Part shown: positions 18 to 11,502 of the stretch, one piece after another
Position numbering within the stretch: the first letter of the stretch is position 1
How the letters are laid out: each line of letters opens with the position of its first letter
From: a virus
Taxonomy: Duplodnaviria > Heunggongvirae > Uroviricota > Caudoviricetes
IMG/VR virus record: IMGVR_UViG_3300027733_000047
Direction: 5' to 3' (one strand)
DNA length: 11,502 bases
Notes under the pieces: model-generated
What the model was told of the DNA's origin: nothing
The model's database searches: none
What the model saw: only the letters and a program-made list of their open reading frames with translations
Position numbers and translations under genes: made by a program

Positions 18-37
18 TTCTATTTTTTATATAAATA

Positions 38-454
38 TCACACCTCCCCAATAAATTCATGGCTAAAACAAATTCTCCTATTGTCAAAGTAATGTTCTTT
101 ATACATGTTTTTTATGGAAACATCTTTTCTAAGTTTTTTATTTTTACTTGTTGCAACCCACAATGGCGAATTTTCTCGATAATACCCCATCTTAGGGTGC
201 GCGGTTCTTGAAAAGAATCTAAGACCTTGTTCCACGTGGATTTCACCTATTCCATTAGAAAATCTAACACCCATACCCATACCTTGATAATCTGGGAGAA
301 TAACCGTCCTATGACTACGCCATGCATCCTTTAGTGTACCACTCGGCATTGCAATACTAGCACAAAACGCAACAATCTCATCTTCCCATACACCTAAATA
401 ACACCTAGCTGCTTTATTTATGTTACCATCTAAATAATGATAGTCTTTAAACAT
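38..454 (-). CDS. GNAT-fold acetyltransferase-like domain, probably the C-terminal half of a frameshift fusion with the upstream ABC ATPase
   Basis: GNAT motif A-like segment RTVILPDYQGMGMG and an N-terminal HYL motif. The frame stays open upstream from 454 to the T9 tract at 509-517 (ARPKINLEIYRTSHNIWP-MFK). Confidence 0.8.
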   Translation of the reverse strand: MFKDYHYLDGNINKAARCYLGVWEDEIVAFCASIAMPSGTLKDAWRSHRTVILPDYQGMGMGVRFSNGIGEIHVEQGLRFFSRTAHPKMGYYRENSPLWVATSKNKKLRKDVSIKNMYKEHYFDNRRICFSHEFIGEV

Positions 455-1107
455 GGGCCAGATATTATGGCTTGTTCGATATATCTCGAGATTGATTTTT
501 GGGCGGGCAAAAAAAAACCCTGATGGAATTCACCAGTATCAGTATCTATAACCCAATCAGGTTCTAACCAATCTAGTATATCGCGGTGACATGTAGCTAA
601 AACAATATTGTTTATATCATTATTTTTAACATATTTACTCAAAGACACGCTAGCAGCTTTTGCTACATTCCTATCTACAACGCTTGTAAACTCATCAATG
701 ACAGCATTTGACTTTAATTTTCTAGCTAAATCAGCTCTAAACTTTTCACCGTTTGATAATACATGATATGGTTTATACCAAGAAGGTATTGTATTTAACC
801 CAACGGCACCTAACTTGTTTATTGATTCATCTGGAGATTCAAAATGTGATACGATTGATTTTGTACCATCCCATTCTGGTGAATCTTCAACACCAAAGTT
901 TTTTAGTAATGTTGACTTACCAGAACCGCTGGAACCAACAATTACACCAATCTTAAATTGTTTTGGAATGTTACTTGGAAGAATCCAAGGATAAAATTTA
1001 GATGTACCGTCAAATATACAATCAAATGCTCTTTCACTGGCTTTGATAAAATCATCTCTATCTACTGTAGAGATTAAAGGGGTTGAAGTTTTAATTAATT
1101 TTTCCAT
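430..1107 (-). CDS. Soluble ABC-family ATPase domain (N-terminal half of an ABC-GNAT fusion)
   Basis: Walker A GSSGSGKST, ABC signature LSNGE, Walker B AVIDEF and H-loop ATCH. No transmembrane segments. Confidence 0.9.
   Translation of the reverse strand: MEKLIKTSTPLISTVDRDDFIKASERAFDCIFDGTSKFYPWILPSNIPKQFKIGVIVGSSGSGKSTLLKNFGVEDSPEWDGTKSIVSHFESPDESINKLGAVGLNTIPSWYKPYHVLSNGEKFRADLARKLKSNAVIDEFTSVVDRNVAKAASVSLSKYVKNNDINNIVLATCHRDILDWLEPDWVIDTDTGEFHQGFFLPAQKSISRYIEQAIISGPCLKTIII
509..520 (-). other. Slippery site GGG-T9 (candidate -1 ribosomal frameshift or transcriptional slippage site)
   Basis: Minus strand reads CAG GGT TTT TTT TTG in the ATPase frame. This contains in-phase X_XXY_YYZ heptamers G_GGU_UUU and U_UUU_UUU, and a -1 shift enters the GNAT frame. 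Confidence 0.7.
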
Positions 1108-1214: not shown

Positions 1215-1421
1215 TTACTTACCTTCAGTAAGTTTGTTGATTTTAGCTTCCAAAGCAGCTAATTTTGTTTCTAAAATAGAGTTTTTGTTACCTTTAGATG
1301 CTTGTTCTGCTAACCATTCTGTTTTCTTGATTTGAACCGCTTCACTAACGATATTGTCGATTAAGTTAACTAAATCGCTTTCAGAAATTTTAACTGTTTT
1401 TGTTGTTTTAGACATATGCAT
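1215..1421 (-). CDS. Small hypothetical protein with a KISESDLVNLIDNIVSE leader and a coiled-coil-like C-terminus; possible head-internal protein (start at 1421 or 1415)
   Basis: Intact ORF with ATATTTAT upstream (1461..1454), repeated [ILV]xE triplets (ISE, VSE, LAE, ILE, ALE, LTE) and a hairpin downstream. Confidence 0.75.
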   Translation of the reverse strand: MHMSKTTKTVKISESDLVNLIDNIVSEAVQIKKTEWLAEQASKGNKNSILETKLAALEAKINKLTEGK

Positions 1422-1489
1422 AAGTTTTTTAAAAAGATAGATTATCTTAATATATAAATATATTAAATTTTATAAAAAGATAAAAAAAA

Positions 1490-1999
1490 TTACTTGGCAT
1501 ATTTATCGCCGCAATAACTTGCAGCCCACGCACTCGGCTTTACCTTAAACTCATAACCCATACCCAATATATAACCAATGGCTTGACTTAACGATTTGCT
1601 AGATTCCCATTTTGGGTCTGGGTTTATATCAGCATGAATCTCCATGCTTATACCATACAATTCAAGCAATGGCGCAATCTCATAAGCAACCTCAATTGAT
1701 TTGCCAACTTCTGTTAACATCCTTTCATTCACGCCCTCTTTATCTTTACCAAAAACATTGATATTATATGTTGCAGATATAATCTTCCCACCCCTACCAA
1801 CTGTTACACCACCACCAATATCTTCTCTAACGGTAATCAAGATAACTGTTGCAAACTTATAACCCCTACTATTTTTTTGTGAGTCGGTACCAACAGAAAC
1901 CCTTAACTCATGTTTCAATTCTAATTCTTCCTTGATTAAAGATTCTAAATACTCTAACAATGGAACATTAATTTTTTTACCAGCTCTTTCCCATTTCAT
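1490..1999 (-). CDS. RNase H-like protein of the YkuK/DUF458 type
   Basis: Motifs SVGTDSQ, ERMLTEVGKSIEVA, EIHADIN and KVKPSAWAASYCGD match the family pattern as I recall it. Confidence 0.8.
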   Translation of the reverse strand: MKWERAGKKINVPLLEYLESLIKEELELKHELRVSVGTDSQKNSRGYKFATVILITVREDIGGGVTVGRGGKIISATYNINVFGKDKEGVNERMLTEVGKSIEVAYEIAPLLELYGISMEIHADINPDPKWESSKSLSQAIGYILGMGYEFKVKPSAWAASYCGDKYAK

Positions 2000-2130
2000 A
2001 ACTTTTAATTTTTTAAAATATTTATGTATAACATTTAGTTTTTATATGACGATAAAACAAATACAGTCTGTTAATAATACAATAATATGTATTATTATAA
2101 ACCCTATTATCGCTATAATAGATACTAAAC

Positions 2131-2158
2131 AAAAGTCCCCATTTCTGGGGACTTTTTT
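2131..2158. terminator. Bidirectional intrinsic terminator
   Basis: 11-bp stem AAAAGTCCCCA/TGGGGACTTTT with loop TTTC and A/T tracts on both sides. It abuts the stop codon of the LRR gene. Confidence 0.85.
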
Positions 2159-3566
2159 ATAATTTAACTGAAGGCAACAACTTTTTGAGCCTTTCATAAT
2201 TATTTTCCCCTATTTGTTCTTTTTTAACTGCTAAACGAAATAACGAACCACCATTTGATTTATCTAATTTAGAAATCTCATCAGGAATCTCCGTTATCGG
2301 ATTACCAATTAGATTTAAAAACGTTAGATTTTTTAAATTACCTATTTCTCTTGGTAATGCTTTAATTTTATTTTCCGACAATACCAACATCTCTAGGTTT
2401 TCAAGCGCCCCAATTGACGGATGCAATTCAACCATACCCGCGTTTGTTATTATCAACTGGTCAACATCTTTAAACTTACTAATATCTGGCATTCTAGGAA
2501 TTTCCCTAGTCATAAATCTAATAACAGGTGTTTTTTCATCCAACAACTCAAATAAACTCTCACAAAAGCCAAATTTAATTAAGAAATCTAAGTATTTGTT
2601 ATTATCTAATCCTGTTGAAACCATTTTAGCCATTTCCATCAACTCATCATGAAAAAAACTTGAAAGGTTTTCACTTTGGTTAATTACATTTTCAAAAATA
2701 CTAACATTTTGTGAATTATGCCTGTCCTTTATCTGACCAGTTTCAAAATGAATTTGATAGATTTCATTTGATTCATTTTCAAAAAACTTATTGTTTATGA
2801 TAATGTAAATCTTAGATTTATCACCATTTGGTTTTCTATTGTTTTCGGTATAACTCTTAAACATACCATTCTCTGGTTTAGCCGTACACCAGTTAGCAAA
2901 CTTATCAAACACAACATTAGCATCCCTTACTTTTGGTATAAACAACGTAAACTTTCTATCTCTGACTGGTATCTCTGCTTGACCTAAATTAACAAACCTT
3001 TCCATCATGCTCTCAACTTCACTTGGTTTACGTTCAATAAACGGGTCAACAGCATCAAATAATTGCGCTAATGAAACATACTGATTAATATCCGTTGGGT
3101 CTTTAATATGTTTTAATATATGAGAAGAGCTGCAAAAATCTTTAAACTTTTTCTTCCTTTTGTTCGATTCAAATAGCGTAATATATGAACTAGCCTGCGG
3201 TAAATCTTCAACAACAAATCTAATAGCTACATGGGTGTTACTACCACCAGATTTAATCAATCTAGTAAAAACATTTAACATCCATTGAACACATGATTTG
3301 TTTGGTGTCGGGTCTGCTTCAATTATTTTGGTGAAAATATCAAAAGATATGCTGACATTTTTCTGTATACGACCTTCATTTTTTTTATATGAAACTAAAC
3401 ATAGCAACACATCTGATGAAGTTATATTACTAACTTCAAACTCATCATCATTTAACTTTTTTATCTTACGCTCCACAGCTTTGGCGTCTTCTGTCTCGAA
3501 AACATCAAATTTTTCAGCTAAAAATGTTAACCTATCTTTTACTATATTTTTTTTGTCGTCAAACAT
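2157..3566 (-). CDS. 469-aa protein: phage-type N-terminal and central region (DPTPNK...QWML, WCT motif) plus C-terminal leucine-rich repeats
   Basis: LRR units LEMLVLSENKIKALPREIGNL and LTFLNLIGNPITEIPDEISKL fit LxxLxLxxNxLxxLPxxIGxL. Start moved to ATG 3566 because the ORF-track start (3593) lies inside the promoter. Confidence 0.85.
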   Translation of the reverse strand: MFDDKKNIVKDRLTFLAEKFDVFETEDAKAVERKIKKLNDDEFEVSNITSSDVLLCLVSYKKNEGRIQKNVSISFDIFTKIIEADPTPNKSCVQWMLNVFTRLIKSGGSNTHVAIRFVVEDLPQASSYITLFESNKRKKKFKDFCSSSHILKHIKDPTDINQYVSLAQLFDAVDPFIERKPSEVESMMERFVNLGQAEIPVRDRKFTLFIPKVRDANVVFDKFANWCTAKPENGMFKSYTENNRKPNGDKSKIYIIINNKFFENESNEIYQIHFETGQIKDRHNSQNVSIFENVINQSENLSSFFHDELMEMAKMVSTGLDNNKYLDFLIKFGFCESLFELLDEKTPVIRFMTREIPRMPDISKFKDVDQLIITNAGMVELHPSIGALENLEMLVLSENKIKALPREIGNLKNLTFLNLIGNPITEIPDEISKLDKSNGGSLFRLAVKKEQIGENNYERLKKLLPSVKL

Positions 3567-3582
3567 ATAACCGTATTTATTA

Positions 3583-3614
3583 CAAATATACAAAAACTAA
3601 ATTGATTATACAAA
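3583..3614 (-). promoter_or_regulatory. Bacteroidota housekeeping-sigma promoter (-33/-7)
   Basis: TTTG (3614..3611), 20 nt, then TATATTTG (3590..3583): an exact match to the TTTG-N19-21-TAnnTTTG consensus. Confidence 0.85.
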
Positions 3615-4785: not shown

Positions 4786-5100
4786 TTAATTTTTAAATTC
4801 GTCTATAACGCTTTGTAGAGCTGATTTAGGTACCGCACCCTTTTGTCTGTAAACCTCAGCACCATCTTTTAAAAAGATAATTGTTGGGATGCTGGTAACA
4901 CCGTATTTTGCCGATGCTTCTGGGTTGCTAGTAACATCTACCTTGCCAATAACAACGTCAGTGTTTTCATTAGCTAATTCGTTAATGATAGGTCCTATCA
5001 TTCTGCATGGGCCGCACCAAGCCGCCCAAAAATCCATAACAACAAGTTTTTCACTTGTTAAAACCTCACCAATGTTCTGGTCTGTAATCTCTAATGCCAT
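4786..5100 (-). CDS. trxA: Thioredoxin
   Basis: Active site DFWAAWCGPC, cis-Pro motif SIPT, FLKDG...GA and a typical length of 104 aa. Confidence 0.97.
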   Translation of the reverse strand: MALEITDQNIGEVLTSEKLVVMDFWAAWCGPCRMIGPIINELANENTDVVIGKVDVTSNPEASAKYGVTSIPTIIFLKDGAEVYRQKGAVPKSALQSVIDEFKN

Positions 5101-6380: not shown

Positions 6381-6875
6381 ATGGCTAATTACAATTTTAA
6401 TAAAGACCTTATACTAGGTGAAGAAGGTGAAGAAGTTATAATAAAAGACCTGCTAACGATGGGCGCTAATTATGACTCAAACAATAAAAATAACACACAT
6501 GACGTTATCGTTACCTATTTAGGTAGAAAAATTAGTTATGAGTGTAAAACAGATTTCTTTGATGATACTGGTAATATGTTTATTGAAACATCTTGTCGTG
6601 GTAAAGAATCAGGTATATCGGTAACAAAAGCCGATTGGTTTGTAACATACTTTAAAGTATTAAATGAAATCTGGTACATCAAAACGGCTAAATTAAAAGA
6701 AATCTTAAGTAGCCATGACCATAAAAAAGCTACCCAAAGCGGTGACCTTGGTAGCGATACCGAAGGTGTCCTTCTAAATAAAAACATGTTTCGTGACGAT
6801 TTTATTGTTAGACATGCGACAAAACATATTGAAATCATTAAAAAATGGCAAAAAAAGTACAAGAGCCAAAACTAA
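6381..6875 (+). CDS. PD-(D/E)XK (restriction-endonuclease-like) nuclease-fold protein
   Basis: Helix G-x-x-G-E, then THDVIV and YECK, followed by TGNMFIE...GKESGISVTKADW, a common phage PD-(D/E)XK pattern. Confidence 0.7.
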   Translation: MANYNFNKDLILGEEGEEVIIKDLLTMGANYDSNNKNNTHDVIVTYLGRKISYECKTDFFDDTGNMFIETSCRGKESGISVTKADWFVTYFKVLNEIWYIKTAKLKEILSSHDHKKATQSGDLGSDTEGVLLNKNMFRDDFIVRHATKHIEIIKKWQKKYKSQN

Positions 6876-7423
6876 TCGTAGAACTAATACCTAAAACTTG
6901 CCAATACTCAAATGTCAGAACCACACTCAAAAAAAAAGAATGGGATAAAATACGATTAATCGTATACGAAAAAGCTGGACATAAATGTGAAATATGTCAC
7001 CAAACTGGTTTAGAACAAGGTTATCGACATAAATTAGAATGTCACGAAATCTGGAAATATAACGACACAAAAAAAATACAAAAACTTGTTGGTCTTATAG
7101 CACTATGCCCACTATGCCACCAAGTAAAACATATCGGAAGAACCTCATTCATTGGCAAACAAAAAATAGCGCTAGATAGACTATCCAATATAAACAAATG
7201 GAATCTAGAAGAAGTTACACAACACGTAGCTGAAGCCTATGAAAAAAATAAAGAAAGGTCCAATTTTGATTGGACCCTTGATATATCTTTATTGAAAAAA
7301 TCACCCTATAATATTGTTATCAATTCAACAGAAACTCGTAAATACGAAAAAGTTAAATACAAAAAACGTAAATATATAAAAAAGAAAACCGCTAAAAGAA
7401 AAAGACCAAAGAAAAAAAATTAG
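6845..7423 (+). CDS. HNH-family (beta-beta-alpha-metal) endonuclease-like protein with Zn-binding Cys pairs and a basic tail
   Basis: CEIC...LECHE...LIALCPLCHQVKH and a Lys/Arg-rich C-terminus. Overlaps the upstream gene by 31 nt. Confidence 0.8.
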   Translation: MAKKVQEPKLIVELIPKTCQYSNVRTTLKKKEWDKIRLIVYEKAGHKCEICHQTGLEQGYRHKLECHEIWKYNDTKKIQKLVGLIALCPLCHQVKHIGRTSFIGKQKIALDRLSNINKWNLEEVTQHVAEAYEKNKERSNFDWTLDISLLKKSPYNIVINSTETRKYEKVKYKKRKYIKKKTAKRKRPKKKN

Positions 7424-8135: not shown

Positions 8136-8150
8136 GATATAATTTTTGTG

Positions 8151-8182
8151 TAAATATACGCACTTTCTTTATAAAATGCAAA
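8151..8182 (-). promoter_or_regulatory. Bacteroidota-type promoter (one mismatch)
   Basis: TTTG (8182..8179), 20 nt, then TATATTTA (8158..8151). Confidence 0.65.
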
Positions 8183-8189
8183 TATTTAT
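8182..8189 (+). promoter_or_regulatory. ATATTTAT putative late promoter for the 8200-10770 operon
   Basis: Exact motif copy, 10 nt before an in-frame GTG at 8200. Confidence 0.6.
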
Positions 8190-8199
8190 AATAAAAACT

Positions 8200-9054
8200 G
8201 TGATATTTTATAAAAACATATTATTAGAAGCTGACGACGTTATTAAACGCCCAATATTTCATTTTACGGAATTAACAGGTATGTATGAAACGGCTATGAA
8301 AGGGTTGGATACAGAACTAAACATTCCAAAGGATGTGTTTAAAAGTTTCCAAATAAAAGATGAACTATACCCAAAAATGTGGGCAAATGAACAACTTAAA
8401 CCAGAAATTAGAAAACAATTACTCAAAATAGCTGTAGATTTTTTTACAAAATTAGAATTACCAGATGAAATAAAACTAAAAGATGTCTTGTTGGTCGGCA
8501 GCCTAGCTAATTATAATTGGTCCGAATACTCAGATGTTGATATGCATCTTGTTGTTGATTTCTCACAATTTAAAGAAGATGAAGAATTTATAAAAAAATT
8601 CTTTGACGCACAAAAAAATCTTTATAATATAAAACACGACATCAAAATCGCTGGCCATGACGTAGAAGTCTACGTACAAGACAAAAACGACAAGGTACAC
8701 GCTGGCGGCATATACTCATTGCCTAAAGATAATTGGGTACGTATGCCTATTAAAAATAGATTTACAGTTGATAGAAAAAATGTTAAACTAAAGGTAGATA
8801 AGTTCTTTGATAAAATCAAAAGCATTGAAAACACTTACAAAAAAGAAAATTATAAAGACGTAATCACTAAAATAGACGCACTAAAAGACTCGATAAAAAA
8901 AATGAGACAGGCTGGATTAGAAAAAGGTGGGGAGTACTCAATAGAAAATATTGTCTTTAAAGTGCTAAGAAGAACCGATTTTATGGAACTTCTAGATACA
9001 TATAAAAATAAATCTTACGATAAAATGGTAAGTGTAAACGAAGAACAACCATGA
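8200..9054 (+). CDS. DNA polymerase beta-superfamily nucleotidyltransferase (probable GTG start at 8200)
   Basis: hG[GS] motif LLVGSLANYNW, catalytic SDVD, third acidic strand VEVYVQD and C-terminal GEYSIENIVFKVLRR. The ORF-track starts at 8146 and 8176 lie upstream of or inside the promoter motif. Confidence 0.85.
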   Translation: MIFYKNILLEADDVIKRPIFHFTELTGMYETAMKGLDTELNIPKDVFKSFQIKDELYPKMWANEQLKPEIRKQLLKIAVDFFTKLELPDEIKLKDVLLVGSLANYNWSEYSDVDMHLVVDFSQFKEDEEFIKKFFDAQKNLYNIKHDIKIAGHDVEVYVQDKNDKVHAGGIYSLPKDNWVRMPIKNRFTVDRKNVKLKVDKFFDKIKSIENTYKKENYKDVITKIDALKDSIKKMRQAGLEKGGEYSIENIVFKVLRRTDFMELLDTYKNKSYDKMVSVNEEQP

Positions 9055-10801: not shown

Positions 10802-11502
10802 TTAAAATGGTAATATATTATTCTCGGTAAAATCATCGACGTCCATTAAATTTAATCTATCCGCCATTGTAATTTCTCGTATCTCAAACTCTTGGACATT
10901 GTTCTCAAAATTAACATCGTACATCATAACCTTTGGCTTATTCTGAATCAACAATTGCATATCCCCGTCACACTTATGAGCATTGGCCAAAGCCTTGTTA
11001 AATGCCAATATCTTTTCTTGAACCTCAATCTGTAATTCAACAGGTGTATTACAATTATACTTGCCCCTGAATTGACCATTTTCCAAATATTTGTTTTGAG
11101 TACTTACCGTCCTAAAATTATCACCAATACCATATGATGATAATTGACGATAGTTTAATTCTAATGTATAACCGTTAATGTGATATATCCCAGCACCACC
11201 GTTGTCAATTTTATTGATGTAAGTGGCAACACAATGCTTTTGTGTCATACCCTCATATAGAACCTCTCTATTGGTTGTCAATAGCTTATATCCAGTCACC
11301 TCAGCAAATTTGCGATATATCTTGGAAACATTTAATTCACGATGCTCCTCAAACTCCAATACCGTGTTGGTAATCTCTTTGGACCAATCATTATGCATCT
11401 GAACCAATCGCTTAACACTCCAAGAACAATTAACCTTCATATCTAGTGTTCTGGCCATCTTACACGTATCAACAAACATATGATGTGACATCAATTCTGG
11501 CT
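10802..11502 (-). CDS. PcfJ-like domain protein, 5'-truncated by the window edge
   Basis: YKLLTTNREVLYEGMTQKHCVATY...IYHI...TLEL...GQFRGKYN matches the PcfJ-like EGxxMxHCVxxY pattern. The frame is open to the window end; the track start is a TTG at 11494. Confidence 0.75.
   Translation of the reverse strand, partial: PELMSHHMFVDTCKMARTLDMKVNCSWSVKRLVQMHNDWSKEITNTVLEFEEHRELNVSKIYRKFAEVTGYKLLTTNREVLYEGMTQKHCVATYINKIDNGGAGIYHINGYTLELNYRQLSSYGIGDNFRTVSTQNKYLENGQFRGKYNCNTPVELQIEVQEKILAFNKALANAHKCDGDMQLLIQNKPKVMMYDVNFENNVQEFEIREITMADRLNLMDVDDFTENNILPF

Follow-up and report, generated by a model that had tools for sequence, protein, structure and literature searches.

An ABC ATPase and a GNAT Domain Meet at a T9 Run

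The stretch of DNA analyzed here (the window; 11,502 nucleotides) comes from a virus contig of 168,871 bases that is 48% complete and has relatives of up to 360–370 kb. On the minus strand of the window, an ABC-type ATPase open reading frame (ORF) runs into a GNAT domain that is encoded in the −1 frame (Table 1). The ATPase half keeps its Walker A (GSSGSGKS), signature (LSNGE), Walker B (IDEF), and H-loop (CH) motifs, and the GNAT half carries HHYL/YHYL and Q-x-x-G-x-G motifs as well as the GNAT acyl-CoA motif. The two halves match, in order, one fused profile, phrog_11143—positions 40–194 for the ATPase half (E = 6.5e-63) and positions 200–351 for the GNAT half (E = 5.8e-39)—and together, with all ABC motifs and a C-terminal GNAT present, they show the features of that family.

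At the junction the ATPase frame reads CAG GGT TTT TTT TTG (522..508), with the T9 run at 517..509, just as the initial annotation had it. The run holds two overlapping heptamers, U_UUU_UUU (517..511) and U_UUU_UUG (514..508). The −1 frame opens past a TGA at 532..530, is open from 529, and meets a stop only at 40..38. A −1 shift or one extra U yields a 356-aa ATPase–GNAT reading composed of 199 zero-frame and 157 −1-frame codons and joined at GFFF-ARPK; this stop-free fusion had been claimed before, and our recomputation was identical. The zero-frame tail that follows GFF has 26 residues rather than the 23 counted previously, and the 225-aa ATPase ending in this tail would be the default short product. 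Within ORFs on the coding strand of the contig, T9 occurs only once, besides a T10 at an overlap of ORF ends, while 5.6 occurrences are expected from codon shuffles of the contig; A9+ and T9+ runs are ~5-fold depleted within its ORFs.

Table 1. Features at the ATPase–GNAT locus (positions are those of the window)
Feature	Position	Strand	Remarks
ABC-type ATPase ORF, zero frame, 225 aa	430..1107	minus	~196-aa ATPase domain + GFF + 26-aa tail
Putative T9 slip run (GGT TTT TTT TTG)	509..517	minus	T9 in 46/50 split clade representatives
GNAT domain, −1 frame	38..511	minus	Entered at T run (F-ARPK...); 356-aa fusion
Dual-coding overlap, 26-codon zero-frame tail ending -TIII-stop	430..510	minus	Overlies GNAT strand 1 and helix 1
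Degenerate stimulatory-hairpin position	456..504	minus	8/12 pairs here; 11–12/12 in non-T9 members
Internal ATG taken by gene callers as GNAT start	452..454	minus	3′ of strand 1 and invariant Trp; probably false start
ATATTTAT motif, candidate phage promoter	1113..1120	minus	Just 5′ of ATPase start
Second ATATTTAT copy	38..31	minus	Over GNAT stop
Neighbors	1215-3593, 4786-5100, 6845-7423, 8146-9054, 10802-11494		RNase-H-like, 478-aa protein with C-terminal leucine-rich repeats, thioredoxin-like ORF, HNH nuclease, nucleotidyltransferase, PcfJ-like protein, 68-aa ORF

Genomic Neighborhood and Host Signals

The candidate promoter motif ATATTTAT has 78 copies in the contig, and either it or GTATTTAT lies upstream in 17 of the 50 split loci of the clade described below. 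A sigma-70 factor is encoded at C1:110598-110768 of the contig; neither RNA polymerase beta nor a ParB partner was found in this 48%-complete sequence, and it contains no tRNA genes. Gene starts of the contig show no enrichment of Shine–Dalgarno (SD) sequences and a strong enrichment of TAAAA (56 vs. 10.6). Signals of this kind suggest a Bacteroidota-like host, SD-poor and TAAAA-rich starts being, by inference, a Bacteroidia-like pattern (PMC13000457). Neighbors in the clade include an RNase-H-like gene and a gene with leucine-rich repeats, which are uninformative on function, and a 68-aa ORF is conserved in 47 of 50 clade loci. In small phages, members of the phrog_11143 family adjoin ParB-like, formyltransferase, ASCH, and terminase genes, neighbors that fit but do not prove the prediction of DNA base acylation.

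The Split Is Conserved in a Single Clade

How widely is the split kept among homologues? We gathered ~340 homologous loci, drawing on viral, metagenomic, and genomic collections and taking the best 80 matches per scan, together with 19 GenBank phages; junction classes were assigned with profile hidden Markov models (HMMs), and clustering at 95% identity left 248 representatives. Among the matches listed, these comprise 46 with T9, 1 with T8, 3 with GGA AAT TTT, 2 with an in-frame T10, 8 with other −1 junctions, and 188 in-frame fusions. The T9, T8, GGA AAT TTT, and T10 classes form a single clade of 52 members (SH support 100), in a phylogeny that is FastTree only and whose related sequences are not independent of each other. 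The split falls at the same junction in 50 of the 52 (64–90% identity, among the matches listed), and the GNAT downstream of T9 is kept at 55–75% identity without stops. An independent assembly (L267), 91% identical in DNA, also has the T9 split; at another locus, L244, a sequencing indel may lie behind the apparent shift. The tree suggests at least two independent origins of the switches, and probably three or more.

The element conserved at the junction is U9, or U_UUU_UUU, and not the preceding G_GGU. Exactly nine T are found in 46 of the 50 split members, with no further run of T8 or longer anywhere in these 50 coding sequences, and TTT encodes Phe at the site in 96–100%, as compared with 65–90% at conserved Phe columns outside the overlap. 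The heptamer register is also kept, U_UUU_UUU covarying to A_AAU_UUU in L032, L035, and L276. The nucleotide at position 520, by contrast with the run, is C in 37, T in 8, A in 2, and G in only 3 of the 50; the G_GGU heptamer is therefore incidental, and we reject G_GGU_UUU as the operative site. Thus, of what the initial annotation proposed, the programmed and conserved shift that would give a short ATPase and an ATPase–GNAT is supported by conservation of the split, and the "perfect" G_GGU_UUU site is not supported. A set ratio of the two products and a tuning of genome modification, also proposed there, are speculative.

The Zero-Frame Tail Is Kept Open

The overlap encodes two frames, and its synonymous diversity within the clade is 0.37, as compared with at least 0.83 in any equal-sized window elsewhere. 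The tail frame is stop-free in 50 of 50 members and ends at the same codon; only 22% of synonymous shuffles are stop-free. Even the two in-frame T10 lineages keep the tail open to the same stop. The fixed stop position was set aside as evidence of selection, being weak alone (the HHYL codons yield that stop in ~55% of synonymous shuffles); on these counts the informative part of the tail signal is the absence of earlier stops. A test for protein-level selection within the T9 clade alone gave values equaled in 5 of 50 control windows. In in-frame members, first-position changes favor those that are synonymous in the tail (excess 0.22, vs. −0.08 to 0.10 in nine control windows), and there the tail peptide shows signs of protein-level selection. 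The initial annotation had missed that the tail of its "ATPase-only" product is, by the comparisons given here and below, kept open across the whole family. The tail may be a docking or degradation signal.

Which Machine Would Slip at T9?

The junction has sequence features of both kinds of slipping. A run of at least nine A or T lies at the frame junction (T9, 517..509), its length is kept beyond what the protein needs (exactly T9 in 46/50), and it has nine T where a ribosomal heptamer requires seven. An X_XXY_YYZ heptamer also lies in zero-frame register (U_UUU_UUU here, A_AAU_UUU in three relatives). Nine consecutive A or T support efficient polymerase slippage in vivo, and in Escherichia coli ribosomes shift only weakly on U_UUU_UUU (PMC5009743).

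Downstream RNA structure separates the members. The window folds at −8.1 kcal/mol downstream of T9 (z = −1.07), which agrees with the earlier remark that strong downstream structure is lacking, and no 3′ stimulatory hairpin was found 5–9 nt downstream of the site; the mean of the 46 T9 members is likewise −8.1 kcal/mol. The four most stable folds of the 50 (−18 to −21 kcal/mol, z ~ −4) are those of the four clade members that have A_AAU_UUU or T8 in place of T9 (L032, L035, L276, and L170), which represent only about three independent lineages; each has a stem of 11–12 bp beginning 6 nt past the heptamer. RNAalifold found no hairpin conserved clade-wide, and pair counts for stem covariation across the clade were no better than shuffles (39–216 of 500).

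Strong 3′ hairpins are otherwise present only in Firmicute phages. The distant temperate phages P335, phiNIH1.1, and MismyG have G_GUU_UUU and a hairpin at the same junction place (in a set of four loci: L081, L082, L360, and L353), and Vinitor-27, in the same set, has a −1 split too. The GenBank records of P335, MismyG, and Vinitor present the GNAT half as a separate gene of reduced length, and that of phiNIH1.1 leaves the GNAT unannotated. Enterococcus phage 9184 (L357) has a dnaX-type A_AAA_AAG followed by a hairpin at ~2345; its downstream GNAT-containing ORF is annotated as "DNA polymerase." Two metagenome-assembled genome contigs have A9 and A10 runs at the junction. Thomasclavelia phage TR-TP1 (L347) has a −1 split at ~2590 with the same tail stop and no clear heptamer (CTG GGG GAG).

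The four strongest folds occur only in non-T9 members, so T9 would work without a hairpin. Short heptamers are always paired with hairpins, which points to ribosomes at those junctions, and T9 stands alone; the A_AAU_UUU members have runs of only T4–6, which argues against simple polymerase slippage there. On this distribution of hairpins, which favors the preference for transcriptional slippage voiced in the initial annotation, we judge with modest confidence that slippage by RNA polymerase is the most likely process at the window's T9; ribosomal −1 shifting may also operate.

The same two products could instead come purely from ribosomes, by tandem −1 slipping on U_UUU_UUU and/or U_UUU_UUG with the help of a weak residual stem. 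This possibility is consistent with the register of the heptamer and with the same-register A_AAU_UUU in L032, L035, and L276, and the 8 of 12 stem pairs left in the window and the G_GUU_UUU-plus-hairpin junctions of the distant Firmicute phages point the same way. We nevertheless regard it as less likely, given the nonsignificant fold of the window, the covariation no better than shuffles, and the hairpins that accompany all short heptamers and are missing from T9 members. Nor was an SD-like stimulator 9–14 nt upstream apparent: GGTGA lies 12 nt 5′ of the site, GGT is the usual Gly codon (72% here, 42–86% elsewhere), and the clade alignment shows no synonymous constraint upstream of T9 (value 1.02).

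Homopolymers are classic phase-variable sites, and two lineages have an in-frame T10 (L012 and L027/L028, the latter in two assemblies), so that replication slippage within a phage population might switch the gene on (T10) and off (T9). We consider this improbable: T9 outnumbers T10 by 49 to 2, the heptamer-plus-hairpin and SD–CUU versions of the same junction cannot phase-vary, and the tail is under selection.

The GNAT Domain Probably Starts Upstream of the Internal ATG

Gene callers start the GNAT at an internal ATG. An AlphaFold model of a natural in-frame relative (L012) had a mean pLDDT of 92.5 and placed the slip site within a linker, with the GNAT fold beginning at about residue 190 of the fused protein. 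The ATG at 454 comes only after strand 1, a portion of helix 1, and the invariant GNAT Trp, and according to the model the frameshift is required for a complete GNAT fold. The AF2 model of the short form had a pLDDT above 89 in the ATPase domain and ~44 in the tail (disordered). Structure searches found no solved structure of an ABC-ATPase+GNAT fusion relative.

Could the two halves be separate overlapping genes, with the GNAT made from ATG 454, perhaps by translational coupling, and the T run incidental? The Met is found in 47 of 50 clade members, and truly separated versions are known (L180–L185 and L323). It is, however, replaced in three members and variable in fused homologues; a protein started there would lack the invariant Trp along with strand 1 and half of helix 1; the −1 frame 5′ of it conserves R-P-x-I-x-I-x-I-Y-R and W; and T9 conservation would be left unexplained. 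We therefore hold separate genes to be very unlikely at this locus. L323 and L180–L185 were themselves rejected as frameshift members, as they appear as separate overlapping ATPase and GNAT genes; the ATPase of L180–L183 still ends in a G-T-I-T-like tail.

A homopolymer assembly error or a pseudogene has next to no claim on these data: one more T (T10) would put both frames in register, but exactly T9 with the −1 split recurs in 49 of 56 distinct homologous junctions, on contigs from many samples, which excludes an assembly error, and the downstream GNAT, conserved and stop-free, speaks against a pseudogene.

In-Frame Fusions Appear to Hide a +1 Cassette

What has become of the tail in relatives whose ATPase and GNAT are fused in frame? 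We examined openness of the same frame in 177 in-frame representatives as a control in which stops were expected. Among the matches listed, this frame (+1) was open in 97.7% of the 177, as compared with 53% under a synonymous null, 34% in control windows, and 31% in the third frame; in the AT-richest in-frame class the tail frame was open in 90% vs. 27%. The open frame reaches the same I-T-I end, where 104 of the 177 stop, most others stopping 19–44 codons later. The HHY codons stay CAT CAC TAT in in-frame homologues whatever the GC content.

A candidate shift signal lies at the entrance to this frame. The cassette GG[A/G]GG, one codon, and then CTT (123 cases), GTT, GAA, CAA, or AAA—a pattern defined post hoc from the sequences—is found in 159 of the 177, vs. 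a background of 0.5%. A separate codon test that is anchored on amino acids, and is independent of the cassette pattern, found the Leu before RRP encoded by CTT in 97 of 100 cases, vs. 17% gene-wide. By the same test, the Arg is AGG in 81% (vs. 10%) and the Gly is GGG in 81% (vs. 17%). The SD sequence GG[A/G]GG ends exactly 3 nt 5′ of CTT, the spacing used for +1 shifting (PMC5009743). The codons in the A site after CTT are sense codons (CGG 47, CAA 21, AGG 15, CAT 10, and TGG 10), and the UGA stop that follows CUU_U in prfB was not found in the in-frame relatives. Carriers of the cassette include the cultured phages PX29, Axumite, Jace, EastWest, and phiE255 and contigs of Nonomuraea, Bradyrhizobium, and Botrimarina. 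The Bacteroidota-linked members (pT24, Porphyromonas 006a, and L192) have CTT/CAT CGG and an open tail but no SD, and the window itself is without the +1 cassette. Thus, homologues that look simply fused apparently hide a reverse switch, a +1 shift into the same tail; the direction would apparently be −1 in the T9 clade and +1 in in-frame fusions, with the same two predicted products. Such a +1 form would escape frameshift finders, which are presented with an intact annotated ORF.

Two relatives have stops of their own. Tenacibaculum phage pT24 (L084, 2312-3484) encodes an in-frame ATPase–GNAT with a stop ~50 residues into the GNAT (gp038/gp037), and its +1 tail frame is open despite that stop. 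In Nonomuraea sp. (L256), an in-frame TAG directly precedes the cassette SD at ~2962, where relatives have GAG or GCG; this would be either a point mutation or a case of readthrough.

Might SD-less hosts have forced a switch away from the +1 cassette? An SD is present at 2% of neighboring gene starts, vs. 39%, which fits such a switch. In prfB, loss of the SD has no obvious link to genome-wide SD use (PMC10798248), and the idea is therefore only a lead.

Among the papers covered by a literature search, none dealt with the +1 cassette or with a tail shared across the family, and none was relevant to frameshifting in the ABC-ATPase+GNAT family.

A Proposed Model: Two Products by Interchangeable Routes

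How would the gene work? Most transcripts would be read straight through to give the ATPase with its 26-aa tail. A fraction would gain one U when RNA polymerase, probably that of the host, slips on T9, and ordinary translation of these U10 transcripts would produce the 356-aa ATPase–GNAT; ribosomes shifting −1 on U_UUU_UUU may contribute some of the fusion. On balance we favor one gene of the phage ABC-ATPase+GNAT family giving two proteins in this way, with polymerase slippage on T9 as the main route.

Across the family, an ATPase with tail and an ATPase with GNAT are apparently made by up to four interchangeable routes: (a) T9 or A9–10 runs; (b) a −1 heptamer followed 5–6 nt later by a hairpin; (c) for the majority of members, ATPase and GNAT fused in frame, with a prfB-like +1 cassette that would divert ribosomes into the same tail; and (d) for a small number, ATPase and GNAT genes that are separate and overlap. 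The default would thereby be reversed, from the short form in the T9 clade, where a slip gives the long one, to the long form in most relatives, where a +1 shift gives the short one. Going further, we think it fairly likely that nearly all members of the ABC-GNAT family, which is widespread in phages and prophages, are obligately dual-coded, requiring both the short ATPase with its "-ITI" tail and the full fusion, and that lineages have swapped T9/A9 slippage, the −1 heptamer with hairpin, and a sense-codon ("hungry" Arg/Gln/His) RF2-type +1 cassette, reversing the default product.

What would two forms be for? Since ABC ATPases dimerize, the simplest purpose would be a mixed complex in which ATPase outnumbers GNAT. 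By analogy with the gamma and tau forms of dnaX, ATPase subunits without a GNAT could, by way of the ABC dimer, join subunits that carry one in a machine predicted to acylate DNA bases, a proposal on which we are evenly divided.

If true, this reading offers one orthologous family with both shift directions and both machines leading to the same two products, an unusually clean natural experiment on the retention of recoding. A stop-less RF2-type +1 cassette in ORFs that look intact would be a recoding class unseen by annotation pipelines, and expressing only the fusion of this predicted DNA-modifying enzyme may miss a needed subunit. Cultured examples are at hand: PX29, Jace, Axumite, and phiE255 for +1, and P335 and Vinitor for −1.

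Comparison with Known Systems

The "GNAT coupled with an ABC ATPase" of Iyer et al. is cited in PMC7824862, where DNA base acylation is predicted only and the ABC-ATPase-linked GNAT is treated as a family separate from Mom. The phrog_11143 family is described there as a plain fusion, with no mention of a frameshift; here it is split by T9. Like Mom of phage Mu, the protein is a phage-encoded GNAT fold with predicted DNA base acylation; unlike it, it comes with an ABC ATPase. Pfam and PHROG scans and the top fold matches gave no hit to Mom, only generic GNATs at 7–13% identity, and the Pfam/PHROG scans gave no Com profile match. In the Mu-like phage phiE255, the ABC-GNAT gene directly follows the tail-fiber genes, the position of com-mom in Mu. 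A small ORF, the ABC-GNAT gene, and a formyltransferase gene follow the tail-fiber genes in phiE255 (L351), Komp_PAO1_1 (L355), and Porphyromonas 006a (L354); when a Com-like regulator was sought upstream in Mu-like phages, the small ORFs there had no Pfam hit.

The T9 junction resembles the Mg-chelatase and GeneTack poly-A −1 clusters and the G/GT shift of phage tail-assembly chaperones in its conserved −1 junction, its homologues fused elsewhere, and its short and long products. Those are different genes, and the ABC-GNAT family was not found among the entries examined.

The in-frame relatives resemble prfB (RF2) in the 3-nt spacing between an SD and a CUU codon in the P site. One junction (L151) reads AGG GGG TAT CTT, which matches the E. 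coli prfB signal. They differ from prfB in that the A-site codon is a sense codon and not UGA, so the cassette cannot sense RF2, and a shift would shorten the protein instead of completing it.

The closest parallel in organization is dnaX, which uses a −1 ribosomal shift in E. coli, slippage on a 9-base run in Thermus thermophilus, and a reversed layout in Chlorobi (PMC5009743, PMC3711429). As in dnaX, an ATPase gene would give a short and a long form, slippage and ribosomal shifting interchange between lineages, and the default product can be either form. Unlike dnaX, the protein is unrelated, the short form ends in a 26-aa selected tail and not in an immediate stop, and the family has the SD–CUU +1 route as well. 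The direction of shift is reported to be conserved among orthologues with ribosomal frameshifting (PMC3711429). Each type of mechanism is already known.
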